From: Rotaria sordida
Taxonomy: Eukaryota
Assembly: GCA_905250005.1 (NCBI GenBank)
Contig: CAJNOH010000220.1
Location: 1-64,000 of the forward strand
DNA length: 64,000 nt
Direction of reading: 5' to 3'
Positions 14,299-46,100 of this stretch are shown in pieces; positions within the stretch are counted from its first letter, which is position 1; each line of letters begins with the position of its first letter. Position numbers and translations under genes: made by a program. Below the pieces are notes generated by a model. That model made no database searches. It had not been told where the DNA came from and was given only the letters and a program-made list of their open reading frames with translations.

Positions 14299-17200
14299 TT
14301 AAGACGAATACCACTGTACTAAATATAGGTTTCCTAATGTATCACCAGCTACAACACCAAATATTCCATTATTATTTTGTTTCCATGTACGCATTTTTGT
14401 AATTGGTGCTGGTACAGGATATTGTCCAAGAATATCGTCAATTTCCTCATCTTCTTGTTCATCATTATCATTTATTTTCATATGTTTTGAATGATCATTT
14501 CTATATTGTACTCGTATGACATTATCGAAACCACTTGTAAATATAAATTCATTATTAATTGAACATAATGCTGTAATTGATCGTTGTTTTGATGATATTT
14601 GATTTTTATTCCATGTTTTTATATCACTAAATAAATTTGATGTTGAATACATATTTCCTGTTGTTGTACCTAAATAGAATACTTGATTATTATCAAGATT
14701 TTCTATTGATGTTATCCATTCAGATGGAATTGATATTCGATATTCTATTTTTGATGAATATGATGCATATAATTTACTATCTGTTGAATCAATTAATGAT
14801 AAATCATATGAACATAATTCATTACTTGTTGAACCAATTGTTAAAATACAATGTTTATGTTCATTTAATGTTAATAATGATGATAATGGCCATTGACATG
14901 TTTGTGTTTTATATGTTTTTAAGCGTTCAAGTGAAGATGATGAATAAAGATAGAATGTAAGTGAATCAAAAGATTGATTTTCACCAACAACAAAATATGG
15001 CATATCATATTGACCAGAAATAAATGAAACAGGTCCATTTGTTGTTGTATCAGTTCTTAAACGTTTTATTGAACATTTTTCTTCATTTTGATTATTGATG
15101 ACTGTCCAAATTTTAATTTTTTTATCAACAGAACCAGTTACAAGAATATGATGTTGAGCATCTGAACGAATCAAAGCCATACCAAGAATTGTTTCATCAT
15201 GTGCTTTAATTGATTGTATAATACGAAATGGTTTTTTAGACATTTCATTTTTCATCATATCTGTATCCATTTCATAATCATCATTTTTTAATGATGATGA
15301 TGATAATAATGACCAAATGAATAGATATGCATCACGTGAAACAGTAAAAACAAGAGAATTATCACGAGAAACACTAATCGATGTAACTTCATCTAAATGA
15401 CTAACAGGTTGAGGAACTTGTGGAGTCATTGCTGATGTTGTTGAATCATTATTTATAAATATACTCGTTGGAATTTGCCATGAACGAAGTGTTTTATCAA
15501 GTGATGATGTTACAATTGATTCATTACTAAGTACAATATCATTTAATGGTTGTGCATGTGCATCATAAACACAACGTTGTTCAGGATCAGTTGGACGCCA
15601 TACACGTATTGAACCATCTTCAGATGCACTAACAACAAGCATTGTATCAACTGTATGTGTTGTACGTGAAAGTTCTTTTTCTTGTTCTTCAACCATATTC
15701 GCCCATTTAGAACCTGAATCGGTTTCATATTTCATACTGACACCTTTTAATTTAATCCATAAATCACATGAAGTTATTTTGTCTGTATGACCACGTAAGC
15801 ATGTAACTTCAGTACCTTTATGAGACCATACTCGAATTGTATTATCTAATGAACCAGAAATAACACATCCATATGAAAAACAAACTGTATTAACAGAGCC
15901 TTGATGACCACGAAGTGTTACACGTGCTTCTTCAACATTAGCTGAAACAATATCCATAGAATTATCATCAGTTTTTGTTGTTTTTGGTATTGTATTCCAA
16001 ATTTTTAATGTATTATCATTTGATGCAGTTACAAGTAAACCATTAGTTGTATTTGATAAAGCAATATCATTTATCCAATCAGCATGACAATGAGCAAGTG
16101 TATTTGATAGTGTTACAACAGATTTTGATGAATATTGATGTATATTCCATATATGTACTTGACCATCACGACTAGCTGATATTAATTGATGTGTTTCATT
16201 ATTAAATGTTAAACCAGTTATTGGTGTACGATGTTCAGTTAAAATTTCATTTGGTTCATATGTTGAACGTTCAAAATATTTTGATAGCATATAAACACAT
16301 ATTGTTGCATCTTCAGATCCTGTTGCAATCATATTCAATTTACTCATAGCACATGATAGAACAGCTGCTGTATGACCTTTAAGTATTGATGTTTGAATAC
16401 GAATATCAGTTCTTTTACCTAAATCTTTTAAATCATATATACGAGAATTATGATCACCCGATGCTGATATTAAAATATTTCCAGATGCAGGTGAAAATCT
16501 AAGACGATTAATACGACCTTTGTGATAATGAAATTCTTGTTCAGCAGTACCATTTTGTATATCAAATATACGTATAGAACCTGAATGATATCCAGCTATA
16601 ATAAATTCACCTTCTGGATGAATTATAATACTCGATACTGAACCCCATGTTTCATTACCAATTATCATTTGACATTGACCTATTGTTGATGAAAATACAC
16701 GAACACGACCATCATTACCAGCTGATGCTAATGTTGATCCATTTGGTGAAAAATAAATTGAACTTATACGAGCTGATATAAGACCAACTTGACTACCACT
16801 TAATGAATTCCATAAACGACATTCACCATCAATTGAACATGATGCTATATAACGACCATCAGCTGAATAAGCAACAGCTTTTATTGAACTTAAATGTCCA
16901 CGCATAACTGATTTACGTTGTCCACTTGTTACATTCCATTGTCGAACAATACTATCCCAACAACCAGTTACTAACATAAAACCATCAGGATGAAATGCAA
17001 CACTTGATACTGGTTTTGGATGTAAACGTATTTCTGTATCGTACCGACCTTTTTGTATATCCCATATACGTACAAATGAATCCCATGAAACAGATGCAAA
17101 TTGTGTACCACGTTGATTTGAACATAATTCTGAAACTCTTTTATCATGTTTAGGTGAAAGTATATGTAAACGATGACCATTTGCTACATCCCAAACTGAT

Positions 17201-17360
17201 AAACCACCATCATTACTACCACTCGCTAAACGATCATTACCAACAAAACATAAAGCAGATATTGGTGCAGCATGACCAACAAATAATTTTAATAAACGAG
17301 ATGTTGATGTATTATATAGACGAATTAAACAATCAGCAGAACCAGCAGCTAGATAAACAC
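14299..17360 (-). CDS. TEP1: TEP1-like terminal exon (WD40 beta-propeller region)
   Basis: Acceptor tgtttgtttag|GTG at 17361/17360, giving a 73-bp intron 17361..17433. Frame continues [32 protein letters not shown]...[17 protein letters not shown] into the 892-aa ORF 14299..16977. Confidence 0.8.
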
Positions 17361-20300
17361 CTAAACAAACAAAAAAAATATTTAAAATTGATTATTTTGT
17401 TTCGAATTCTTATTTTATTATTTTTAAACTTACCTGATGGTGATATTGCTAAACATCGAATAGGTTCTGTAAAACCTTCAATTGAATATTTCATTTGTTC
17501 CATATTATCTGGTTTATTAATACGAACAAAAGCTGTAATTTGATCATTATTATTAATTGAATTTTTTTGATAATCAGAAAGTATTCGTTGTATATTATCA
17601 AAAACAGGACTTGTTTCTAATTCATTTAATGCTTGTTGATAAATTAATGATGGATTAACAGTTAAAATATGACTATTTCGTTGTATAAATGAACGATATT
17701 GTTGAAGATATACTTCATTAATTTGTCGTTCTTTTGTAGTTATTATTGATGATGATACTGGTTTTGTTTTCATAATTGAAGAAATTTGTGTATTAGTTGA
17801 TGAAGATTTAATTAATTCATAATCATCAATTAATGATTGAATAAGACCAACACGACATTTACCAGCAATAAATTTAAGATTAGTTAATATTGTATTAAAT
17901 AATTTATATTCTTCAGCAACATATAAATAATAAGGTAAATGTTCAAATGCGTTCATATTCATTGATGTCCAATGTGGTCCTGTTGCTTCACACCAATAAT
18001 AAAAAGCAAGAAGTTTATATAAATTAATTTGTTGTTCATTTGAATGTATATAACGTGTTTTAACTATTTGACGAATTTCATTTGATGCTATTGAAATTGT
18101 TTGTGGTCCATCATATAATTGAGGTTTTAATAAAATATGACAATTATAAATAAAATCTGCTAATTGTAAAGGTGTTGTTGTTATTGGATAAGTATAATTT
18201 TCTGGTGGAGGTAAAGTTTTTATTGAACCAAAAGATATATTTAATAAATCACGTAATTCTTGTTCAGTTAAATCTTGTCGTGCTGAATAAATTAAACCAA
18301 ATACTGTAGCAACATATGTTTCACCAAATAATGTATCTAAACGTTTAAATATTTCAAGTAAAAATAAATATTGTCTTTGTGGAATAGATTTTAATTTATC
18401 TGTTATTTTCTTTTCATAATCAGTCATTAATAATAATTCTTCACATATTAATGTTAAATATGATGGTTTAAATGAATCACGTTTACTTGTTATAAATTTC
18501 ATTTGTGATGAAAATGCTTGTTCATCTAATTTTTTACCAAAACGATCAAGATGTTTACGAACAATTTCACTACGTTCAAGTAATTCAAGATTTGATATAT
18601 TAATTGTTAATAAATTAGAAAATTTTTTACATGCTTGTTCAACAACACTATCTTCAGTAGCACTAATAATAAATGTTATTTTCTCAAAATTAAAATCTTT
18701 TGGAATAAAATTTAATGTATGAACTAATGTATCATTATCAAGTAATTCAATACCATCAATACAAATAACAATATTTGAAGGATTTTTTATCATACGAAAG
18801 AAATCGGATAAAATTTTACATAAATCTGTATATGAACTTGTACGAATTTTATCAATTGGAAATTGTTTTACTAATTCTGGCTGATCATTTATCATTTGAC
18901 AAAGTAAACGACGAAGCATTGCAAGACTATTTAATGATGCACGTGTAATACCAACATAATGTTCATATAATTTAACATTTAAATCGACTTTTGATAAAAT
19001 ATTATTAGCAATAGCTGCAGTAGTTGCTGTTTTTCCTGAACCTTGTTGTCCTGTAATAAGAATAATCGATGATTTTCCAATAGATTTAATTGTATCATAA
19101 AGAATTTTATTTCGACTAACAAAATGTTCCATAAATGAAATACGATATTGTCGATGTTGATTATCTTCGATTTCATTATCATCTAAAAGAACATATTCAG
19201 GTTTATATTCTTCTTGTAATGATGTCCATAAATTATCAATAACACGTTGTGCAAATTGTTCAAGATCAGTAACAAGTGGTCGATCATTTGATATACCTTG
19301 CCATGAACATGGATAACCATCAAATGTTTCAAAACCACTTGAACGTATACGTTGTTTTAAATTATTTATTTTTATTTGTGAATTATCATCTTCAGAAATA
19401 AAATCATCAGACCATGGTTTAGGAATATTTGAAAGAAATTTTGGATCACGAAGATAAAAAAATGCTCGATTTTGTTTTATTGATGATGATGATGAATTAA
19501 GTGCTCCAGCTTGCATTTCTAAATCTGTTATACCAGAACCAATTGGTAGTTTATTTAACCATGTAAATCGTGGATCATCTTTTGGTACATCATATGTTTT
19601 TGGTATAAAACCATAACGTTCACCAACTAAACCAATAAAATAATCACTACGATATACTTCATTAAGACATAAGAAAACAGATTGTTTTGTTTGACTTTCT
19701 GCAACACCCCATCGAAGATCTATTTGATAAAGATTAACAAAAAGACTTTTTGCTCGTTGACGTAATTCAGGAAAAACATAACGTGTTAGAAGATCACGTT
19801 CAGCATGCATATCTTTAAATGTTGATGATATAAATACACGTACTGTTCGCCAACGTGGTACTAATGTAGTCATTGGTAAGTTTGTAGACAATTTTGATTG
19901 TTCTTCATTTGATGAATCTGTTATTGATTGTGAATCGTTTTTTGATTCAGTTTTTTGATTAAGATTATGTGCATTATCAATATTTTCAACATGTAATAAT
20001 TGTCCATCATTACCACGTTCAGCAATAAATTTTAAAATTGAATCAGAAAAACCACTTAAAAATATATCATTTCGATTATTAAATCGATCTGATTTTGTTA
20101 ATGAACATTGAGCTATACTTAAATCAATACTGACAAACATAAGTTCAGGATTGACTAAATAACGATAAAGTGAAAGAAATCGATAAACAAAATCTGATTC
20201 AGCTGTATCAGCTTTTAATCCATCTGAAACAATAATACTAAAAAAACAAGAAGATAAATTAAATTTATTTTTGTTGATTCTTTTTCATTACTTACATATT

Positions 20301-23008
20301 ATCAAACCATTGTTTTTCAGCAATCATATTTGTAAGAAATGTTGGTGGTATACAAACATCTGATGATGATGATGATGCTGTAAGTTGATCATTTGATAAA
20401 ATTTTTGTCATTTGATTAAGTATTGTTTCTTGTGGTGTTTGTTCAATTTCAGTAAAACTATCTTTTGTTTTATAAATAATTAATTGACTTGATTCACATG
20501 CTGATTTACACATTAAACCCATTAAAAGACCTATTTCAGCACGTGTTCGTGGTTTACCTAAACCTTTAGCTGCTTGACATGGTTGAGACATTGCTTGACT
20601 TAAATTACAAAAAACAAATGTTCGACCAGGTATTGGTTGACAATTATGTTGAGTTGCTATTTTAACTGAACAATCAAGTGCTTTTCTATAACGTTGTAAA
20701 AGTGCAAGATCATATTGGATTTCTTTTGAACCAAGTTTTTTAGCTTTTTCTAATGGAGTTAAAGCAGTCTTTTTGCCTTTTTCTTTTCGTGTTATTCGTC
20801 GACTTTTAACATCTGGTACACTAGCTATTGTTTCTTTAGCTGCACACCATTTATTAAATTCTTCTTCAAGTTCATCCAATATTTGATATGCAGAAAAGAA
20901 ACGAAATGGAAATTGACGACTATATATAACTGCACCATCATCTTGAAGTTTTTTTAATACCCATTGATGATGTTTCTCAGAAATACCTAAAAAAAAATAA
21001 AAGATTAAAATAGAGATTATTTGTTTCTTTTTTATTATAATTTATAGAAAACTACGAAAATCATATTCGATGAATTCCATCAGTTTTCTCAATACATACC
21101 AGCTTTAATCATATTTCGTAAATTTCTTAACATAGCCATAAATGGAAGTTTTTTATTATCGATCAATTGTTGCCAAACTGCAGCTTTGTTTCCTTTCAGA
21201 CTAATTTGTGTTTCCCATCTATATTTAAAAGAAAAATATTTGTGAAATGAAAAATTGAAATAAAGAAAACTAATTTTACTCACGTTTCTGGTGTTGGTAA
21301 TTTCATACGTTTATTTGCACGTTCTGGTTCGAATACACCAGGTAAACGTGATTGATAAAAAAGTTCGGATGTTTCAGGATATCGTTTACCTAATAGACAC
21401 CAAACATGTTCAACAGGTTCACTAATATGTAATTGACGAATTAATCGTTTTAATGTGAATGCCATTCGTCGTGTTTCACGTTCTTCTTCAGTAATTTGTG
21501 CCATAGGTTTTCCTGTTGCTCTATCTGATTTTTGATCTACTGATGCAACACTCACATTCGAATCGGTTGAAGATCCTCGACTTGTTCTCCTTCCACCGCG
21601 CATGGATCGAGAACCTCGAGCACCAGCTCTCGAATACGAACCACCTCTTCCTCGAGTTCCCCTAGTTGTTGTTGCAGGTTGTGCTGTATTAGCCTTTTTT
21701 GCTTTTTTCAAACGAGCTTTTTCTTTATTATATTTTGCAAGTTGATATTTATCAAAATCAGGAAATTTTTTTACCATAACACGACGTAATGCAGATGGTA
21801 ATGAACCAAAATGAATACGTTTATCAAAAAATGTTTGATAAAGTTCAGCTATTTCAATCCAATCTGATGGTAAATTAACAGTTATTTGAAAATATTTCTT
21901 TAAAAATATACGACATGGTTCGGTATACGCAGCATATGCAAGTAGAAAATTTGCTGTTATACGAATATTTAAATGATTTCGTGTATAAAGAGCAGCCTAA
22001 AATTTAAAAAAACAAAAAATTATTTTCGATAAATAAAACATTTCTGGTTGTATTTTAATTTACTTTAAGAATAAATTCTGGATCTTGTTCAGTTACTAAA
22101 TTAGCAAGACGAATAAGTTCATTTCGTTTTGAATCTGTTTGTTTTCTTAGATCTGGTTGACTTAATAATGAATCAGCCAATGAATTCAGAAAACTTTTCT
22201 ATAAAAAAATAATGGATATAAATTTTTTTCTAGAAGAAAAAACCAATCAATATCAAACCTTAATTGATTTAATGCCAACATTGAAATCATCATCATTTAC
22301 ATTTTGACTTTCAAGTTTAGCATAGATTGAAGAAAATGGATCAATACGAGGACGTTTTGGTGGTGGAACATGACAATGTAAATCAATACCAAGACGAATT
22401 GGTTCTGGTTGAATATTTTCAGCATTATATTTGCGTTCATTATTATCCGAGAGTGAAACAGGTGTACTTGTTTTTGTTGTTATCAATGTAGATTTATTTA
22501 AAATTTCTGGAGTTAATGATTGCTTTATGAGTGTTGATTCTGAAGGTTCGGCTTTACGTTTTCGACTTAAACTTGTTTCACTTGTTAACAAAGATGAATT
22601 ATTTAAATTCGATGATGAAAGCAATGTATTATTAGTAGATAATTTCACGGTGGAGAGAAATGATGATGATGTAGGAGCAGTATTTAATATAGTTGATGAA
22701 GATAATTTAGGAGGAGTACTTAATAGAATTGATGAAGATGATGGTTTAGATGAAGTATTTAATAGAGTTGATGACGATGATGGCTTATGCAGAGTACTCA
22801 ATAAATTTGATGATGAAAGAAGACTCGATGGTTTGCTTGTACTTGTTTCTGATAAAAGTGAACTTGTTGTGTTAATTGTTGATGATGATAAAAGATTCGA
22901 GCCTTTAAGTAATGAACTATTGCTAAGCGTAGAATTTTTTGTCGACAAGAGTGAATTTGTTGTAGACAATAATGAGGATGCCGTTGATGGCTTTTTTGAA
23001 TCAGCCAT
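14299..23008 (-). CDS. TEP1: Telomerase/vault-associated protein 1 (TEP1)-like gene with TROVE + DUF4062 + NACHT + WD40 architecture; 7 coding exons at 22259..23008, 22064..22198, 21284..21996, 21100..21218, 20296..20986, 17434..20237 and 14299..17360
   Basis: Exon 1 (ATG at 23008) is Ser/Leu-rich with SSLLS/STLLN repeats, like TEP1 N-terminal repeats. Exons 2-5 encode TROVE-like sequence: [20 protein letters not shown]..., [24 protein letters not shown]..., [25 protein letters not shown]..., [11 protein letters not shown]. Exon 6 carries [27 protein letters not shown] (DUF4062 signature, as in NWD1 and TEP1) and the NACHT P-loop [15 protein letters not shown]. Exon 7 is about 1000 aa of WD40 repeats (WD/WN dipeptides every 40-45 aa) ending at the TAG at 14299. 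Donors GTAAGT/GTATGT/GTGAGT/GTAAAT/GTTTGA, acceptors TTTAG/ATAG; introns 58-113 bp; phases 0,0,2,1,2,1 are consistent. Confidence 0.85.
17434..20237 (-). CDS. TEP1: TEP1-like exon 6 (DUF4062 + NACHT NTPase domain)
   Basis: Acceptor ...gtttttttag|T at 20238/20237; donor SPSG|gtaagt at 17434/17433. Walker A is [11 protein letters not shown]-track protein 17333..20140 is continuous across this span. Confidence 0.8.
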
Positions 23009-33487: not shown

Positions 33488-34044
33488 CAGCAGTGTCCAA
33501 GGACTGAGAAATAGGAATTCCTAATTTACAGAGGAATTGTCAGCGTAGCTATGATAATTCCTTGGGCAAATGGGAATTGACCATTATTTCCATCACAGTT
33601 CCCTCATTCATGAAAGTCAAGATAATGCTTTTTTTTGCAATAACTTTCGTACTCATACGTTCATGTGCACAAATTTTTTGATGAAAACGAGTGTAAGGGT
33701 AATAAGTACCGTGGATATTGTATTTGTTTAAGAGGGGTGTCCAAGGACTGAGAAATAGGAATTCCTACTCAGTTCCCTGACATTTCCTTGAATGCTAAAA
33801 TTAAACAAATACAATATCCACGGTACTTATTACTCTTACACTCGTTTTCATCAAAAAATTTGTGTACATGAACGTATGAGTACGAAAGTTATTGCAAAAA
33901 AAAGCATTATCTTGACTTTCATGAATGAGGGAACTGTGATGGAAATAATGGTCAATTCCCATTTCCCCAAGGAATTATCATAGCTACACTGACAATTCCT
34001 CTGCAAATTAGGAATTCCTATTTCTCAGTCCTTGGACACTGCTG
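33488..34044. repeat. Long near-perfect inverted repeat (foldback/hairpin): two ~245-bp arms about 98% identical around a 69-bp spacer
   Basis: Left arm 33488..33731 (cagcagtgtccaaggactgagaaataggaattcctaatttacagaggaattgtcagcg...) is the reverse complement of right arm 33801..34044 (...cgctgacaattcctctgcaaattaggaattcctatttctcagtccttggacactgctg) with only a handful of mismatches. The spacer 33732..33800 holds a third copy of the terminal roughly 45-bp motif (gtgtccaaggactgagaaataggaattcct). Confidence 0.8.
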
Positions 34045-34893
34045 AAATAAAAATAAACATAAAATATAATAAAATAATAACAAAAATACTTACAAGACTA
34101 TATGATGGAGTTTCAGTTTTATCGATCAAATCAGGATAGAAAATCTAAAAAGACAGCCAAAAGTATTGTTAAAATCTTATTTAAGATCAAAACTTACATT
34201 AAATTTGTATCTTTGGACTGTTTTTGGTGGTGGATTATCTCTGTCATAATGTTTTTTTATTATATTGATTCCAATCATAACCCTACACAGCCCATTTGTA
34301 CCTCTCAATCGGATACATAATAGTAATTCGAAAATAAAAATTTTTCAAATTAAAGTTTATTTAATCCTTTCATGCCAGAGTTTTTTTATGAACATATTAC
34401 AACGAGATAAAAAGTGACGACGGGTGTTGCCAGAACGCAAGAGAAAACATTTATATATACATAGCGGTGCTACACGATGACGCTATGATATTGGCGACAT
34501 AAGAGAAAGAGAGAGCGATCCTGTGGCCTGAGGCAGAGAGAAGCACAATGACGGCAATATGAGCAAAAGCTTAGCCCGTATATATATAGGCTCCGGCACG
34601 AAAGGGTTAATGGAAAAATTAAGGAGAAAATAAATAAATAAATGTAATTTAATTGTATTTATTCAATATATAGATGCCGCTTGAAAAAAAAAATCTTTAT
34701 TAAAATAAAATTTTTATATGAATTTAAATATTTGAAAAAGAATTTTGGAAAATTAATTTAGATTTTATTGAATGTATAAATATTTATACCAGACCAGTCA
34801 TATTTGTTGGAAATGATAAGACAATAACATATGTATAAGCAAAGAAAAAAACAAACATAAGTGAAGATAAACATGTTCAATTCATGAATTTAA

Positions 34894-35151
34894 TTGTATG
34901 ATTTACCTGATGAAGTTCTTATGATAATTTTGAAAAAATTACAAAATTCTCAAGTTCTCTATTCTTTCATGGGTGTTAATAAACGACTCGATCGAATTGT
35001 AAATGATTCAATTTTTACAAGAAATTTAACATTCACAACATCTTTTAATGATTTAAATCAATTGACTGATTCAATACGTAATCGATTTTGTCATGAAATT
35101 TTACCTAATATTCAACATAAGATCGAATGGATTAACGTTGAATCATCATGA
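34894..35151 (+). CDS. Small F-box domain ORF (85 aa), possibly truncated or an F-box pseudogene
   Basis: MYDLPDEVLMIILKKLQNSQVLYSFMGVNKRLDRIVNDSIF matches the F-box consensus (LPdEvLl.IlskL...dLl....VcKrw..l...). The ORF stops after 85 codons and downstream similarity continues only in another frame, so it may be decayed. Confidence 0.4.
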   Translation: MYDLPDEVLMIILKKLQNSQVLYSFMGVNKRLDRIVNDSIFTRNLTFTTSFNDLNQLTDSIRNRFCHEILPNIQHKIEWINVESS

Positions 35152-35977
35152 ATTGAACCTATTCTTCTTGAAAGAAATTATCCTAATTTACATGGACTTG
35201 GTTTGTATAATCTTACATCAACAAGAGCAAAAGATCTCTTTATTGGTAACGATATTTTGTTTAACTCTTTCAATAATTAATTATATAAGGATAATTTATC
35301 TGAATATATACTTTATATAATTCAAAATTTAGTTCTTAGGGATATTTTTATTCTAAAATAATTTTCTTATTAGTATTTATTGATCAATATGAATATGAAG
35401 AAAATTCAAAATGATCATATCAATTGAAAGAAAATATCAATATGATTTTATAATATTTTCAACTAAAATTTTCTGATTCTTAAAGCAGAAAGTAAATGAT
35501 TAGATAAAAAAAATACTGCATTGATTATAGAGTAAAATGTATTATAGAATTTAAATCAAGATCATTTAGAATTAATTTATTAATAAAGGAAAGAGAATAG
35601 ACTATTTTAAATCAGTAATGGAACTGAGCAAATAGGGATTTTCTCGAGTAAGAGTACAAGTACAAGTACAGGTACCGACCTTTCGAGTATGAGTATGACC
35701 AAAATCATAATCGAGTACTTTGCCCAGCTCTCATTAGTAAATAAAAGGAAAACTAAGAAATAATTTAATAAAAATTTTAATATTTTTTTTTTTATTTAGC
35801 TCGAAGTTTCTTGCGTCGTCATTTAAAAAATCAAATATTATCACTGGTTATTGATATTAAAGAAGGTGGACCAACAGATTCATTCGAAGATGCAGATATA
35901 CATGTATATATACAAATCAGAGCTGTCGACCTGGCCTGGCACCTGCCTGGCACCAGGCCAGGCTGGATTTTGAAACT

Positions 35978-36110
35978 TTGGCCTGGCCTGATCAGGCTGA
36001 AAAATTCTTGGCCTGGCCTGATCAGGCTGAAAACTTTTTGGTCTGGCCTGATCAGGCTGAAAAATTTTTGGCCTAGCCTGATCAGGCTGAAAAATTTTTG
36101 GCCTGGCCTA
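35978..36110. repeat. Tandem array of about 4.3 copies of a 30-bp unit, TTGGCCTGGCCTGATCAGGCTGAAAAATTC (the unit contains the palindrome GGCCTGATCAGGC)
   Basis: Read directly: ...tttggcctggcctgatcaggctgaaaaattcttggcctggcctgatcaggctgaaaactttttggtctggcctgatcaggctgaaaaatttttggcctagcctgatcaggctgaaaaatttttggcctggcc... Subterminal repeat array of the hAT-like element. Confidence 0.8.
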
Positions 36111-36133
36111 CAGGCAGGCCAGGCTAAACTTGG

Positions 36134-36385
36134 TTGCCAGGGTCATTTTATTTGTATTATTTTTCCTTATCAATTTTAGCAAGACAAATACATTCAATTC
36201 CCGCAATTAGTGCTGGTATAGAACGGCAGTTTAGTATTGCTGATCTTACATTAACTGATCAAAAGTCTTGTTTGGATCCAGAACAACTGGACAATATCTT
36301 ATGTCTTCAGGCTATGTCGAAAGTAGATGATAAAACTTTAAAATATTACTTTTTTTGTTATTTGTCTCATGTCTTATTTGCTTAA
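36134..36385 (+). pseudogene. Fragment of a hAT-family transposase C-terminal dimerisation domain
   Basis: ...IPAISAGIERQFSIADLTLTDQKSCLDPEQLDNILCLQAMSKVDDK matches the hAT dimerisation motif (sa.sERvFS.ag.i.t..R.rL.pe.ve.l.fl..N). Only about 80 codons remain; the N-terminal transposase (BED/RNase-H) parts are absent. Confidence 0.5.
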
Positions 36386-39300
36386 TTTTCATAAAATCTG
36401 GCATCCCACCGACAGTTCGTAGAGAAAGAGGAAAAAAGAGGAGCTTCATTTTAAAAAAAAGAGGCTTTCTCAATAAAAAAGAGGAAAAAAAGAGGCGCAT
36501 TTTTTGGCTTTTAAAATGCAAAAAGGTTACCGCGATGTTCCATTGTCGAGAAATAGGAACGGTGTTAATCTGGATTCAGTACAGACTCAAAAAAATTGAA
36601 AAATGAAAGCGATTGGTAGCCGATCACGTTTGTAGTTATACATTTATTGTCGAACTCGGAAAAAGAGAGCTACAAAAAGACAAGAGACACAAAAGGCAGG
36701 GTCTGTCTCAAAGGTACTTAACTACAATATCACTTCATCTAAATGTTCGTATAAAAAGAAAAAGAAGTTCAAAATCATCCAATATCCAAAATCTGTTTAG
36801 TTTATAATATTATAAGAGTGGAAAAACTTAAGAAACCGGAAAAAGACACAGTAGACAGTACATGTCTATAAGAAAAGAAAACACGATACATGTAGTTCAA
36901 AGCAAGTTTCACTTTTCTTTCTCAAATCTGTCATCGAAATTTCAACCGTGGACAGAAGAAATTCTCTCTGCAAACACAAAAATACCACTTGTCATCAAGT
37001 CTGCAAATTTGGAATTCAATTGATATTGAGTAATATACAAAAAAATACTTGAAAAGAATTTTGATTTCTGAATATACTACGGTTTAGTTTTGACAATTTT
37101 TCATGAAATTCTACTAAAAGTGAGAAAATCTTACGGTTTTAAAGTTATATGACGCAACAAGTTTTTATCAAAATTCATGAAAGGTTATAACTAGATCATC
37201 TTCGAGTAGACTATTGATGCAAAAACTATCAGTGAGTATGAAGTGACATTTGGCAAAACTTTTTTTATCTCACGAAATTTTTGAAACTTTAATGACTAAA
37301 TCTGGTTTTATTTGTTGTGCTAACTAGTTGCGTGTGGAAACCATGTCCTCATTCGAATAAATATGGTCACATTAACGGCAAATTGTCGATCCTGAAGCTG
37401 AAGTTCTTGAGTTTCGATTATCGGAAACCATATTTGTTCATACTGGAAGCTGTCTTGACGCTCTACTGAAGTTTTATGCACGATTTTTAGAAAAAAAACT
37501 ATTCCAATGAGCTCAGACATCTAATTTTTAAAGACTCATGTTTGTACATCAATAAATCTATCGCGACTTATTTTCGTATTTCCAAATTTCAGCCTCAAGA
37601 AATATCTATTCTAGATAGATCGATAAATTCCATGTCAAAAAATTTAATAAACAATATTTGCGAAAAGGATAAATGCTTATCTGGTTCTTATGATGCGTCC
37701 TGAGGAATAATTCTGAATGCTGTTATTGATTCTTTTGCTTCGAAGTGTATGGATTCACCGAAATTGACCGATATTATCAATTGTTATCGTTAAAAACCCA
37801 ATTTTTTTCCGAAAAAAGAGAAAAAAGGATTTACAGCAAAAAGAGGCGACAAAGAGGAGGTTCAGACAAAAGAGAGGAAAAAGAGGCAGGGTGGGATGTC
37901 AGCATAAAGTGTATGTGCATTCTACTGTATATTGCTTTTTTGCTATTATGCATATTTTTCTTGTGTAGATGAACCAGTATAAACTTTATCGTTATACTTT
38001 ATAAATTCTAGCATTTATTGTGCGAAAAAAACAGATAAAAATGAGTTAATTTTCATTTTGCGTTTTTTTTTGTAAAGATGTGCAATCATATTATTCTGAT
38101 AGTAGAAGATTAAATAAGTAACTAAAACGGATGTCTTAAATTATTGCTAAACTGTCAATTTACTAATCTGAAAAAGCAAAAACACTATTCGGTCTGGTTT
38201 GCCTGCAGGCAGACCAGGTCAGGCTGCAGGCTGACTTTTGAATTTTAGCCTGGCCTGCTTAGCACACCAGGCAGGCCAGGTCAGGCTGAAAAAAAGTGGC
38301 CTGTTGGCAGCTCTGATACAGACCTGCATACCAATGTGCATAATGACATTGACGCTAATATCAACGTACACAGACCTACCCACCCTTTCTAAACGTTGGA
38401 TACTAGCTTTGTTGAAGACTGTAAAGCAGTATATAACACCAAAGAAGCCGAATATTCAGTCGAGGGTCAAGCGAGTCACACAGACGAGCGCTACTTGTTG
38501 TTATATGCTATAGTAATAACTTGTAGATATTCAGGCTGAAAATTGATAAAAACAATGGACAATCATGATTATCTGTCGATTGCTTTCTCTGTTGTGCACG
38601 TTTCCAATTTTTTCTCAACTTCTTCTAATGAGATATCTTCGATTGAAATGTTCGGTAGTTGAGAGATAGTTTCATATTTTTTAATGCATCTCAATGAGCT
38701 GAGCTACTGGAGGCAAATGATGAGCTTTCGAAATGTGTTTCGTAAAGATTTGTAAGAGTATCAGCAATTAACTAATCATCTTTTATCACACCTGTGGTAG
38801 TAGTATGATATTTAAATGTTAGCGTACAAGGGTAAAATATTGTGTGAATATATTTTAATAAATTATTCCTTTGAGAAATATAAACTATTTTATTTTCCAT
38901 TTTTTTCTGCACAGATAATGATTTTTCTCTTAAATAGATATTTTTCATGAATAGATAATTTTCTAGATCTTCTATAAGTTTTTCGTGCAATGTTTGGATT
39001 CTTTGGAATTTGTACAGAATATGTTGATTATGGTGATCGGTATTTTTTGACTAGTATATATTCACTGACTTTGCCTTACGCAAAAGCAAAAAAGAAAGAG
39101 AAAGTTTTTGAAAAAAGCATCAGCAATGGAGATTATAAACAAGAGAGTTGAAGTATGGAAAAGCACATTTGAGAGAAAAAGAGGATACTTTTCAATTAGT
39201 TTTACGAAAAACATTGTTTACTTCGGTTGATAGAGATGTTTTGGTCAAAACAAGATAGTGATCAGGCGTCTCTTCTTGTTTAACCTCAGCTCCTAAAAAT

Positions 39301-40179
39301 TCGAGTTCGATTCACTTTGTGAAACGCCATTTTGAAAATTTAGATGTTAATAGCTTTCAAACAGCCCATCCATTTTTGTTCAAATTTTTATCATAAGTAT
39401 AACTTTCAGATTCACATAAATAGTGAAAATTTCAACTAAAAGTCGATTAATATGAGTGGTATTTCAGACCATTCGATTTATTTTGTGGTGGAATGCTACT
39501 CTATTTTTATTTCGAAGATAGATTCTGAATTAAAATGTAATTGCATCACATAGACTTTACGTAGACTACTGCAATTTGTAAAACGACATTTTTTATATGA
39601 TACTTCGAGCAATAGTGAGTCGACATGGGCTGCGTTTTTTCTTTCGACATTTATAGTTTTCAACATTTTCACTTTCGACATTGGTTGGAGGAATCATAAC
39701 ATTGCTGAGAAAATAATTTATACTCGAAATGTTAATTCAATCATTTGAAAATCTCAGTAGAATCTCAAAGTTTGATTCTATTGATGATATAAAATTTTAA
39801 TCTATTTTATTTTATGAAATAGATATTCTATTACATATTCATTGATGATTGTTTAAATATTATCGAATTTTATCTTATTTTTTTGTTTCCTTTGAAAAGT
39901 TCTCTTGCTGAGCATTGAAATTCATTATTACTGCTCAGTACCGCCATCTATCATGAAAAAAACATCATGTAATATAATGTGAGTAACACATCTTAGTAAC
40001 AGAACTCATTATACATACTACTATGGTAAACTATCATTGTGCCATATAGAGTTTCATTTTGATTATTTACAGATTGTGTTTTAAAGAGGAGATTAAAAGA
40101 GCTTCGGTACATAAGAACATTTTGTAACAGTTAATCTTTAATGTGAAAAGGCCTATAAATTAAATAAATAAGAACAGTG

Positions 40180-43100
40180 ATGGATTTTACTCCGGCACGA
40201 GATACAAGTGCTACATCTGGCCTTGACCAACCTCAAGGTAGTTTTAAAATAAAAGAAATTTAATTAAAATATATACTGAATATCGGAGAATTTTAGGTCA
40301 AGCTAAAAGAATATCAAATGAACGTCAAATGATTGCCAAACTTGATCCAGCTGAACTTCAAGATCGATATTTACGTTTATATGATGATCATTTAGTTCTC
40401 AAACAACATGCTCGAAAACAAGAAGATAAAATTAAAAAGTAAAAATGAAAAAAAAAAGAAAAAGAAGAAGATTCAATTTTCTTTCTTTAGATTAGCAACA
40501 AAATTAACAAAAGTAATTGAAGATAAAAAGAAAAGTGAAGCCATTCCTTTAGGTAAGTAAACAACAAACAAAATGTAAATACATTTAATATCTTCATCAC
40601 TAAAACAAAAATAAAGGTTCTAAGCTTGGCGCTCGTGAAACCGAGACTGAAAATCTTCTTGCTGAATATCGTAATAAAATATCTCAATTAAGTGAACAAA
40701 ATAAATTACTTAAACAACGCATTGTTGTTTCTCAACAACAATTACAAGCAGCACAACAAATGAAAAAATCAGCTACTATATATGATAATGTTACATCAAG
40801 AATTGATACAGTAAAAGAATTTTCTTGACTTATTTCTATTTATTATTGAATCATTTTTAAGGGTCAACCAAAACGAATGCCATCACCACTACTTCATAAT
40901 ATCCGTGTTATTGGTCCACGAGATTCATCAAGGTGATTTTTTTTGTTGTTTTTAAATCAAATAAACTCCCAGAAAAAGGACAGTTGCAATTAATATCACA
41001 CAGAATTTTTCTTCAAAAAACAATTAGATATTATAATAGTATTTGAAATCCTTATGCTATGAGTCTTCGACTTGAATTTATTATTTTCGATGATATTATT
41101 GAAAATATTAATTCATCTATGATTATCGACTTTCAATCATATAGAAATAGAATCCTGCGGGAACGACTTTCCTCATTCCTCACTTCCGTTCCTGTAATGA
41201 TTTCAGACTTCCTATTACATTTTCATTATAAGTATTTGAGAAAAACTATCATTACCAGACATCAGCTTCTGTCAATAGCGCACTTTATGCAACGTGAGAT
41301 GGTCTTAAATTAAAAATAAAAGTATCATTAGAGATGAAATTTAGTAATATAAACAATGAATATTTATACATCGATATTTATCAAAGTTAACTCAAGATAA
41401 TTATTTCCTTCATCAATTGAAAGGAGAAAAAGAAATACGAGCACATCAATAATATCGATGAAAAAAATGAAAACATTCAAGGAAAAAAGATAATAATAAT
41501 CCTATATTATGATATAACCAGAATAATATTATTTTTGGGAATGCCCATTTTTTAATACCGTTTCCATTTCCAATTTCCGCGGAAAACGGAACAGAAAAAA
41601 ATCGTTCTCGCAGGATACTATATGGAAGTCTACATTGTAATCTTATTTATAAGTTACTTAGTTTACACTATTCATATACGTTCATTTTCCACATCTTAGC
41701 ATAAGCGGCGGAGCTCTTAGGCTTAGCGAGGCTCAGATATCTGAAGAAGCCTTACTAATCTCATCCTGAAGTTATGTTTAGTAAGCGAAAACTCTTTGAA
41801 CAAAAGTTGTCTTGCATTTTTCTGCAGGTTGTATTCAGCCAGATGTTGGATGGTGTATCTGCAAGAATGTATTTTTTTTTGCAACGCCTGGTCGATAGAC
41901 ATCGGAATTTTAGGCAGAACTCAGTCTATGTTTTTTGAAAAACAGCCTTCAGCAGTAAATTGAAAGATTGAATAAATGTTTTTTTGCTTGCCGCGAAAAA
42001 AGTAAAAGTTTGAACGCCTTTAGTAATAATCATTATCACAAAATTTGAGGCAAGCCTACGCTTACGTTTAACAACAATGTAAAAGGTGAGTGTATGGACA
42101 AAATTCAGTAATTCCTTTGTTTTTCAACTGATATCTTATAAAGCATTAAGAAGTTTGGCAATATTACAACACTAGGTAGGTTAAGAAATCTTGCTTAAAA
42201 TCTTTTCGTATACAAGTTGCTTTTGAATTGCATCCTGCTTGTTGCATGACAGACAAAAACTTTGCCCAACAGCTTTTACTGCATTCACGACTGAAGTTTG
42301 CAATAAAATTCTCAAAAATATATGAACGACTTTCTATGAATAAAACTGAACACTAAAAGTTTTCTAATTTTATCTAATATTCCAAGTATTCTTCGAATTC
42401 ATAATTATTTTTTCTAAAAATATATTTCGACTATATCCTATTTATATTTTAGAACTTCTGGAACAACTCCAAGAATAAATAGTGCATTAATAGAAGATGC
42501 TCGAATGGCAAATAAACAATTGTAAATATTTAATTTATATTAATGAAATAAAACGAATCGATTATTGTTGTTTTTTTTTCCTTCTAGAGAAGAATCACTT
42601 GAAAAAGCTAATCAACAACTAAATACATATGAACAACAGATGGAAAATCTTCGTCAACAACTTCAACAACGTGATAATGAATTTGAACAAAATTTATTAC
42701 GTTTAAAAGCCCAAGCAACAGGTGGCGATTCGCGTACTAATTTACAAGAAAATATCGATATGATTCGTTTACAACGAGATTTACGTGATAAATCTGATGA
42801 ACTACGACGCTTACAAACTCAATGTACAAATTTTGAATCAGTCTGTTAAATCTTTAATTTATTGATTAATTATTTATTTTCTTCTTTTTTTTTTAAAGCA
42901 AAATCGTTCACTTCAAGTAACAAATGCAGAATTATTAAAAGAAATTGATCGACTTGATAGACAAATAAAAGATGAACAACAACGAGCGTTACAATTACGT
43001 ACTGAATTAAGAAATGGTTCACGTTCAAATACAGTTATTCAAGAAGTAAAATTATCAAAAATATTTATACTTCGAAAACATAGTTGTAATCAATTTTTTT

Positions 43101-46100
43101 TTCAAGATTTCATCAACATAAAAACATATTTTTTTGAAAACTCAATCATATATTCTGATAGTGCTTGGAAACTTCTCTCATTGTGTATATTCATATTTTG
43201 ACTTAAATTTATTTACTATTTGAGTCTAGTGAAGACATCCTTATCATTAGATCTGTATGAATTTATATTTTTTACTAATCCTTCAGTTTACGTTTTAAAT
43301 TTATGGTCACTTTAGAAATAACTTTTTACAAAAGTAATTATATCCTCTGGAACCATTGTAAAATTTTCTATCATTGTATAGTTTATAAGCTTTTGCTTCC
43401 TAATAATTTTCTGATCGAAGTTTCAAATATTGTTGAAGAATTCGATTCTTCACGATTTTTTTTTCTGGTTACGCCACTACTTCCTATGAATAGTGTCCTA
43501 TACATGTCCATATTCTCAATAGTATACGATCATTCGATGTTCAAATTGAATGTTTTACTTTATTTTAATGCGCATATTTTGCATCTAACAAGGGGATAAA
43601 ATGTCATAAACAATCGTCTAGTCTCATCATATAAAGCAATCATATTAGATTGCTCATATGTTGACTCTTTAACTTATTAGGATAATTATTCACATGTTAG
43701 TTCAAACTGTGATATATGATTTCCTCAATAATATTTAAAATATTGATCAGAAAATTATTATATATCAAAAGTTGTCCAAATACAAATCGATAGAAATTTT
43801 TCACCCTTACCAAAATGCAGCAAAAAAATGTAGCCTTTTACTTGTTACAAATGCATTCACAAGTAATGATTAGTCTCTATATACTGAAAGAAAATTTCAC
43901 GCGATATCAGAATATGTAATTGAATTTTCAAAAACTACATTTTTACATGGATGAAATATTGAAACAAAAAATCGATGATAACTATTTGTTTTTCAAGTGT
44001 ATATAAATGTTTTCTTTTTGTCTTGACAAAAATTGATTTGTTTTAGCTTAATGCTCAAATAGAAGATTTTCGACGTGAATGTGAAGTATTAAAAGAAGCA
44101 AATACAAAATTAGTTAGTTCAGCATTTAGTGGTGATCGTGATAGAGAATTTCGTGAAAAAGAACGAGCATTAAAATTACAAATAGCACAACTTGAAGCAA
44201 CGCTTAAAGCAGATTTAGGTGAAAGAGGAAATTTACTTGATCGACTTACATTAGAAAAAGGTAGAAAATTTATCTTTAATAAATAGAAAAAAATTAATTA
44301 ATTAAATGATTTTCTTTTTAATTTTAAGATACAAATAAAAGAACTGATGACGAACATCGTGCTATGCATTTGAAATATTTAGAAATGAAAGAAAAATATG
44401 ATGATTTAGCAGAAAAAATGAGATTTTTTGAAAAAGTTTGTTATTTCATTTAGTTGTTTGTTTACAAAAATCTAAATTGGTTTAATTAGGAAAGTGATAT
44501 AAATATGAAAGAAATTGAAGAAGCACTTATTATATTACGTCAACGTAAACAACGACAAGAACCAAATTTTGATTTTCTACAAAAAGTTGATGATGAAAAA
44601 GCACAAAGTAAGAAAATATAAAGAATAAAAACAAAAAAGATTTGGTTTTTTTTGTTTTATTTTAGATTTAAATCGACGAGTACTTGAATTAGAAAGTCAA
44701 TTAGCTGAAACAGCTAATGAATTAGAAAAAACTCGAAATTTATTATTTATGCAATATAAAATTAATCGAGATTATAAACTTGAAGTATAAACAATGGGTT
44801 TTTTTTTCTTTTGATTAAGATTTAATTTATACTTTTATAGGTTGATTGTGTTCAAAGAAAAATGGACGAAAATCAAGCAGAACATTCATCACGTGTACTT
44901 GAAAGTGGTCAATTACTTGATATTCGTGCTGATCGTATTCGAAAACTTGAAAAGTATGTTTCTTTATTCGATAGAAAATGTAATAAGAAGAGAAAAAATA
45001 TGAGCATTTATAATTGCAACTTATTTTCAGACAAGAAAATCATTAGGAATATTAAAAAAAAAGCTGTAAATCTTTCACTGTTTTATTTTTTTAACTAGAG
45101 CCTTAAAAGATGTTGCTTATGGTACACGTCAATATCGTATTCAAGATCAACCAATTACTGATGATAATCTAACTAATGATTTAATTGAAGAAGCTATTGA
45201 ACTTGAACGTGGTCAAAATTTAATTGAAATTCATATAAGTCGTGCTTCATTTAATGAACGTGCACTTGAATTTTTTGGTAAAAATAATGAACCATCAACA
45301 TTTTGTTCGATAGAATTTTTTGAACATGAATTACAAATGACACCTATTGTAAGAGGTCGAATACCAGAATATCATTTTACTGCACAATATATTGTTAATG
45401 TTGATGATTTTCTTTTATATTATTTACAAAAAGAATATACACTTATTGAACTACATCAAACAGTTGGACAATCATTTCAAACAATTGCTACATGTAAACT
45501 TAGTTTAAAACAACTTATTGAAGGTAAATTTAAATAGAAAAAAGAAAACAATCATTTTTAATTCTATTTTTAGGTAATCAAGGCCGATTACATGGTACAG
45601 CTAAATTAATTGCATCTCATCAAAATAATATTGATATTGGTACATTTGGTGTTATTGAATATTGGATTCGATTACGTGTACCTATGGAACAAGCATTCCG
45701 TTTATTAAAAGAAAAAATGAAAGCTCAAGGTTATCTTGTTACAACAAGTCGTCCATCAACAAAAACATCTGATGATATTGAACAACAACGTGAAATGAAT
45801 CCAAATATGAATGAATTAACAATAGCTATACTTAATTGTTCAAATGTTAAAGCAGCTACACCAGGTAGAATAGAAACAAAATTGTTTTTCTTTTCTTAAA
45901 ACAAAAAAAAACCTTTTTTCTAGATCATCAACCTGATCTTTATTGTATATATAAATTTTATGATTTTGTTGATCATGATACAATAACAATTCCATCATCA
46001 AATAATCCAAATTTTGATGATCGTATACAATATCCTGTTCAAATGGATGCTGATCTTGATCGTTATCTTAAACAATCTCAATTAACAATATTTGTTTTTG

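Follow-up and report, generated by a model that had tools for sequence, protein, structure and literature searches.

The 64-kb window analysed here (64,000 nt of contig CAJNOH010000220.1, 29% GC) carries a 557-bp near-perfect hairpin at 33488-34044, and the question it raises is whether such a structure is a gene dedicated to small RNAs or a derivative of a transposon. A sequence-only reading of the window had put an hpRNA or endo-siRNA locus first and had named a foldback-type transposon as the alternative. An inverted-repeat search returned the hairpin at exactly the coordinates given in that reading and bore out its description of arms of roughly 245 bp, about 98% identical, around a 69-bp loop: the inverted arms lie at 33488-33731 and 33801-34044, measure 244 nt each, are 98% complementary and stand 69 nt apart. 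Compared base by base, they differ by five substitutions (four transitions and one transversion, at 33528/34004, 33544/33988, 33567/33965, 33667/33865 and 33698/33834) and by no indels. RNA folding, which had been proposed as a check, predicted a single long stem for the 557 nt, a 244-bp near-perfect duplex of -441.5 kcal/mol (z = -49). The DNA fold of the same 557 nt likewise gave one long stem (-288 kcal/mol, z = -48), and as DNA the locus is a potential hairpin or cruciform.

The same reading had described a terminal motif of about 45 bp, holding a palindrome and recurring a third time in the loop, and had taken the third occurrence as a sign of replicative or recombinational origin. A motif shared by the hairpin termini does exist, but it is shorter, with 30 nt exact or 38 nt at 92%. 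The exact 30-mer GTGTCCAAGGACTGAGAAATAGGAATTCCT occurs in the window at 33493(+), 33737(+) and 34010(-) only, while 100 shuffles gave no match; the occurrence at 33737 lies in the loop as described, and the palindrome is AGGAATTCCT. Its recurrence has another explanation than replication: as comparison with related copies indicates, the third motif belongs to an intact 313-bp element, whose left terminal inverted repeat it represents.

Relatives of this element were sought by an exact 30-mer scan of JGI metagenome contigs, which yielded 16 contigs with one match each, and two further copies (L017 and L018) were recovered by a search with concatenated stop-free six-frame peptides of the element. 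The family sample thus comprises 18 contigs from several metagenomes, with L001 and L013 representing one locus on two contigs and with the source genome represented by the present locus; 13 other full or near-full copies are available overall, and 11 full or near-full metagenome copies made up the alignment set (blastn, MAFFT). Every full-length copy aligns solely to window positions 33732-34044, with sharp ends and unrelated flanks. The repeated unit measures 310-314 bp in nine full copies, starts with 5'-GAGGGGTGTCCAAGGACTGAGAAATAGGAATTCCT... and finishes with ...AGGAATTCCTATTTCTCAGTYCTTGGACACTGCTG-3'. Identity to the window copy is 94.6% for L008, 92% for L017, 82% for L018 and 68-75% for the others. 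The 13 other full or near-full copies possess just terminal inverted repeats of about 37 nt, and neither blastn nor the alignment revealed a second arm in any of the 18 other contigs. The majority fraction reaches 0.99 in the left terminal inverted repeat, 0.90 in the right one and 0.75-0.84 in the interior, the 99% at the left end (positions 6-35) being partly a matter of ascertainment, as the copies were found using that very 30-mer. Conservation begins at the G of GAGGGG, the bases upstream being unrelated among copies, and the outer five nucleotides are unlike at the two ends (GAGGG versus CAGCA). When folded alone, the intact 313-bp element is much less stable than the whole locus (-111.5 kcal/mol, z = -9.8).

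The GC content of the metagenome contigs is 28-39%, and animal-type genes flank the copies, namely 7tm_1, FG-GAP and, at L018, an F-box exon, the copy there sitting in the apparent intron that directly follows it. Searches with the 30-mer and the right-end consensus in viral and prokaryotic genome collections returned no match. No ORF longer than 63 aa is found in the element or in the locus. Because the element is short and non-coding, with conserved terminal inverted repeats and dispersed copies in unrelated flanks, we classify the family as MITE-like, that is, as putative non-autonomous TIR transposons dispersed in bdelloid-rotifer-like DNA. The 313-bp family appears not to have been described before, while the phenomenon itself is well known. 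The many dispersed copies, which the sequence-only reading had itself named among its refuting conditions, point to a transposon family and away from a dedicated small-RNA gene. The transposon alternative of the sequence-only reading was therefore closer than its hpRNA first choice, although only in part: the locus is transposon-derived, but the family is not a foldback family.

How the locus is put together became apparent from the family profile. In nhmmer, profile positions 1-312 match 33732-34044(+) with E = 2e-96 and positions 70-312 match 33731-33488(-) with E = 3e-69, and the two matches abut at 33731/33732 with neither gap nor overlap. No further family copy was found by nhmmer in the 64-kb window. 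The first match corresponds to an intact copy of the roughly 313-bp MITE-like element (copy B, 33732-34044, plus strand; blastn, MAFFT, nhmmer), which makes up the loop and the right arm. The second corresponds to a 5'-truncated sibling (copy A, 33488-33731, minus strand; nhmmer), which consists of element positions 70-313 in inverted orientation and forms the left arm. The left arm opens with CAGCAG, the outer bases of the element's right end, whereas the left end has GAGGGG; we therefore read the left arm as an inverted copy of the element's right-hand 244 bp that reaches the terminus, and not as a copy of its left end. With M denoting the 313-bp element, the locus can be written as rc(M[70-313]) + M[1-313]. 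The hairpin spacer of 69 nt (33732-33800, plus strand) equals element positions 1-69, present in copy B and absent from copy A. The long hairpin is thus best described as a rearrangement peculiar to this locus, in an element whose inverted repeats are normally short. Given that the arms are 98% identical and that the nearest other copy reaches 94.6%, the duplication is younger than the family and confined to this locus.

The termini of the two copies can be defined in detail. Copy B starts with its left terminal inverted repeat, GAGGGGTGTCCAAGGACTGAGAAATAGGAATTCCTAC, at 33732-33768(+), which includes the third 30-mer together with the palindrome AGGAATTCCT; it is this repeat that we take the motif in the loop to be. 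At the other end of copy B, 34008-34044(-), stands its right terminal inverted repeat, ...TAGGAATTCCTATTTCTCAGTCCTTGGACACTGCTG, with a family majority of 0.90 and the conserved terminus CTGCTG. The outer left end of the composite, 33488-33524(+), is a right-end-type terminal inverted repeat belonging to copy A, and it is the exact reverse complement of 34008-34044, outer CAGCA included. Viewed as a transposon substrate, the locus offers one left and two right ends. At the junction 33731/33732, copy A breaks off inside the element, at position 70, and meets the exact 5' terminus of copy B; no microhomology was found there. The core of the terminal inverted repeats, TAGGAATTCCTA, is a perfect 12-bp palindrome at 33512-33523, 33756-33767 and 34009-34020. 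Within this core, GGAATTCC is reminiscent of both a Rel/NF-kB-type half-palindromic site and an EcoRI site; an EcoRI-linker cloning artefact was rejected, as GGAATTCC lies in a diverged family found in many shotgun metagenomes. Subterminal GGAATT/AATTCC repeats in alternating orientation occupy 33954-34018 at the right end of copy B and are mirrored at 33514-33578 in copy A. Of the 46 GGAATT sites in the window, 12 fall inside these 557 bp; the family consensus keeps three of the four that lie at the right end, and we consider these repeats putative transposase-binding-type motifs. Directly to the right of the element, at 34045-34085, lies an A-rich, (AAATA)n-like microsatellite, which belongs to the flanking DNA and is absent at other copies.

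The nine full-length copies were scanned for target-site duplications of 3-10 bp, with boundary offsets allowed. The locus represented by L001 and L013 exhibits a perfect 8-bp duplication, GAAAAACA, exactly at the inferred termini, whereas mismatched flank pairs, used as a null, shared repeats of at most 6 bp. No duplication was detected in the remaining eight of the nine copies, L010 sharing ATTT only; metagenome flanks are possibly chimeric, yet L018, which sits in a coherent-looking intron, is without one as well. The flanks of the composite share AAA only, and copy B taken alone has no target duplication. Since duplications are absent from most copies, from the composite and from copy B, transposase-mediated integration is here something that we infer.

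Hallmarks of hAT transposons are an 8-bp target-site duplication and YARNG-type termini. The duplication seen in one of nine copies hints at this superfamily, while the termini GAGGG and CAGCA have only the AG at positions 2-3 in common. A hAT remnant lies 2 kb from the hairpin at 36134-36385(+) and consists of the C-terminal dimerisation domain of a transposase (Pfam PF05699, E = 3.7e-10); no upstream catalytic part was found for it, it is without a terminal inverted repeat like that of the MITE, and nhmmer detected no similarity between it and the element. Immediately upstream of this remnant, a 30-bp tandem repeat, TTTGGCCTGGCCTGATCAGGCTGAAAAATT, spans 35977-36109 with 4.4 copies and 92% matches and yields a repetitive 'WPGLIRLKNF' ORF. 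The element encodes nothing and would depend on a transposase from outside its own sequence; no autonomous partner with matching termini turned up.

Several other classes were considered for the element and rejected. Tc1/mariner elements were set aside because TA flanks are absent, and piggyBac because TTAA flanks are absent at the other copies. A solo LTR was discarded because its inverted repeats would be much shorter than those seen here, and because the outer bases of the element are conserved. Helitrons and Helentrons have 5'-TC...CTRR-3' ends, insert between A/T or T/T and lack terminal inverted repeats; the ends of the present element are GAGGGG...CTGCTG, and the base next to each end is not constant (a/t/c at the left, g/a/t/c at the right). 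A tRNA-derived SINE was dismissed as no tRNA is present, and a retrozyme/hammerhead or other structured RNA as there is no Rfam match.

The host itself is a bdelloid rotifer, because the best relatives of the protein encoded by an ADP-ribosyltransferase/TPR (ART-TPR) ORF in the window come from Rotaria sp. Silwood1/2 and R. sordida (59-63% identical), followed by Adineta species. At the DNA level, the nearest match of this gene, in Rotaria sp. Silwood1, is 76%. The ORF (28746-30623, minus strand) encodes 625 aa starting with MGGQKSK, is shorter than most rotifer homologues (650-1000 aa) and has a C-terminal TPR region that looks disrupted; its exact product was not found on record, and neither were those of two ORFs inside the hairpin arms. 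No nhmmer matches to family copies were obtained in 78 kb around ART-TPR homologues in the Rotaria sp. Silwood1/2 assemblies.

Long, intron-poor ORFs characterise the window. A large gene at 14299-23008(-) comprises at least two long ORFs with DUF4062, an NACHT/NWD1-type NTPase and TEP1-type WD40 propellers. In this otherwise gene-dense window, the stretch of about 15 kb at 30700-46000 is unusual: it is gene-poor and rich in repeats and transposon remnants, and it includes no ORF of 160 aa or more; five ORFs reach 110 aa, and the largest of these has 158 aa. Left of the hairpin, the direct repeats that had previously been noted are indeed present, but measure about 760 bp instead of some 720 bp (31143-31876 and 32144-32903; 76% identical, about 1 kb apart); the hairpin flanks were not found in these repeats or elsewhere in the window. 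An F-box-like ORF of 85 aa (34894-35151, plus strand; Pfam E = 1e-5) lies 850 bp downstream of the hairpin; it continues only after a frame change and most likely represents a truncated gene or a pseudogene. Another inverted repeat, at 43360-43443 and 43718-43801, has 84-nt arms that are 74% complementary and 274 nt apart, and is possibly a further decayed MITE-like element.

Which event brought the two copies together? The best explanation, which we hold with moderate confidence, is that sibling MITE-like copies, the truncated A and the complete B, were joined head to head by a transposase-mediated event. Both the outer-left and the inner junction look like transposon-end junctions, because the inner one is the exact 5' terminus of B and the outer left one is a complete right end beside unrelated DNA. 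A random breakpoint in 313 bp would fall on the exact 5' terminus of B with a chance of roughly 1-2%. The event would have joined the left end of B to an internal site of a near-identical copy in inverted orientation, by self-insertion (compare maize double Ds) or by alternative transposition between sister copies. Self-insertion would require a further event that removed the first 69 bp of A, and motif and profile searches found no trace of them to the right of 34044. They may have been lost afterwards, for example through an adjacent deletion starting at the right end of B or through a centre-break deletion of the palindrome. When L008, L017 and L018 serve as outgroups, the truncated arm carries the derived state in four of the four polarisable arm differences, while the fifth site differs in both arms. 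The pattern suggests either a sibling copy that was slightly different or chance (p about 0.125, not significant).

An in-situ inverted duplication without any transposase, in which template switching or fold-back break repair copied positions 70-313 in reverse, is unlikely, albeit worth taking seriously. Double-strand breaks are frequent in desiccation-tolerant bdelloids. That the arms are adjacent and 98% identical, that a target duplication is absent, and that palindromes in the element ends could favour strand switching would all fit such a copying event. Against it stand a junction that falls exactly on the 5' terminus of the element, which a random breakpoint would rarely hit, the lack of microhomology at that junction, and an outer arm end that is a complete right-end terminus set against unrelated DNA. 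The distribution of derived states would also be slightly surprising if the two arms were equally old, though not significantly so.

The hairpin may at the same time be functional, that is, an hpRNA or endo-siRNA locus that is transcribed, cut by Dicer and kept by selection as a trans-silencer of the MITE family or of genes bearing its copies. Such a role is compatible with the structural explanation, and we regard it as rather improbable. In its favour are the predicted near-perfect 244-bp dsRNA, the presence in the arms of the terminal inverted repeat that is conserved throughout the family, the maize precedents, and the expansion of Argonaute/Piwi, Dicer and RdRP gene families in bdelloids (PMC7943196). 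On the other hand, no adjacent coding exon, promoter, host gene or conserved ortholog was found, the composite is missing from all 18 related contigs, and the arms have already begun to diverge. Rfam gave no match at gathering level in the window; the best sub-threshold matches were the plant long-hairpin miRNA models MIR8007 (88.4 bits against a threshold of 195) and MIR821 (79 against 249), a structure-only resemblance.

If transcribed, the hairpin would be an excellent Dicer substrate. A read-through transcript would give a 244-bp dsRNA, as with Mu killer, and small RNAs made from it would correspond in sequence to the family's terminal inverted repeats and subterminal sites. Taken further, this leads to the idea that the locus is a natural 'transposon killer' in an anciently asexual animal, silencing or marking the whole family in trans, a speculation to which we attach a small probability. 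Were it true, the locus would play in an animal the part that Mu killer and the Ac composite insertions play in maize, and would bear on how bdelloids keep transposons scarce without sex.

The composite itself might alternatively be mobile, a foldback-type derivative of 557 bp that uses two right ends and was transposed to this site as a unit, which we find very doubtful. It is indeed bounded by two intact right-end termini with subterminal GGAATT repeats, and its left and right flanks resemble neither each other nor the element. Yet no second composite occurs in the window or in any related contig, the flanks share nothing beyond AAA, and FB-style tandem subrepeats are absent. An inverted chimera from whole-genome amplification or a mis-assembly at a repeat is scarcely credible: multiple-displacement amplification is known to produce inverted chimeras, but a copy made from a single molecule should be identical, whereas the arms here differ by five substitutions, mostly transitions, with no indels, the junction falls exactly on a transposon terminus, and unique flanks run on at both sides.

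The main value of these results is a correction, as an apparently purpose-built hairpin gene turns out, on the present comparison, to be a rearranged copy of a small MITE-like family. MITEs have been reported as a very minor and poorly characterised share of bdelloid repeats (PMC7943196), and the family consensus and termini could aid the annotation of such repeats. Like other MITEs, the element is about 313 bp long and non-coding, its terminal inverted repeats of about 37 nt are more conserved than its interior, and it has short subterminal repeats and many dispersed copies in unrelated flanks, one of them intronic (L018). It departs from them in that its target duplication is seen in one of nine copies and in that its outer five nucleotides differ between the ends (GAGGG versus CAGCA).

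With Drosophila Foldback (FB) elements, the locus shares long inverted arms, a short loop and the lack of coding capacity. In FB, however, the long arms characterise the whole family and are made up of tandem subrepeats, whereas the members of the rotifer family have short repeats. An FB-type foldback was accordingly rejected, as TRF finds no tandem array inside 33488-34044 and the other family members are without long arms. Animal hpRNA or endo-siRNA loci and MITE-derived miRNA precursors likewise form a long near-perfect duplex from an inverted transposon repeat, while the rotifer hairpin is known by its sequence and a predicted fold, with sub-threshold Rfam matches.

The closest parallels come from maize, where head-to-head transposon pairs are known natural triggers of transposon silencing by RNAi. 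Mu killer duplicates part of MuDR in inverted orientation; it is about 4 kb long, spans transposase-coding sequence, is transcribed from a flanking gene and silences MuDR (PMC3440606). Transcription and silencing are proven there, whereas the rotifer locus is non-coding and known from its sequence alone; both are natural partial inverted duplications of a transposon that include the terminal inverted repeat and from which a long hairpin RNA is predicted. In the Ac/Ds system, inverted duplications generated by alternative transposition give rise to dsRNA and to siRNAs that silence Ac/Ds (bioRxiv 10.1101/2020.01.07.897926). Double Ds keeps both halves of the recipient copy, while the rotifer locus is without the 69-bp half. 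Compared with the Ac/Ds composites, the rotifer locus has no duplicated flanking DNA, its mechanism is deduced, and it is built from 313-bp MITEs in an animal. What it has in common with double Ds and the Ac/Ds composites is the architecture, an inverted copy joined to a sibling fragment at a precise element terminus, the result of which is an inverted duplication of terminal and subterminal sequence.
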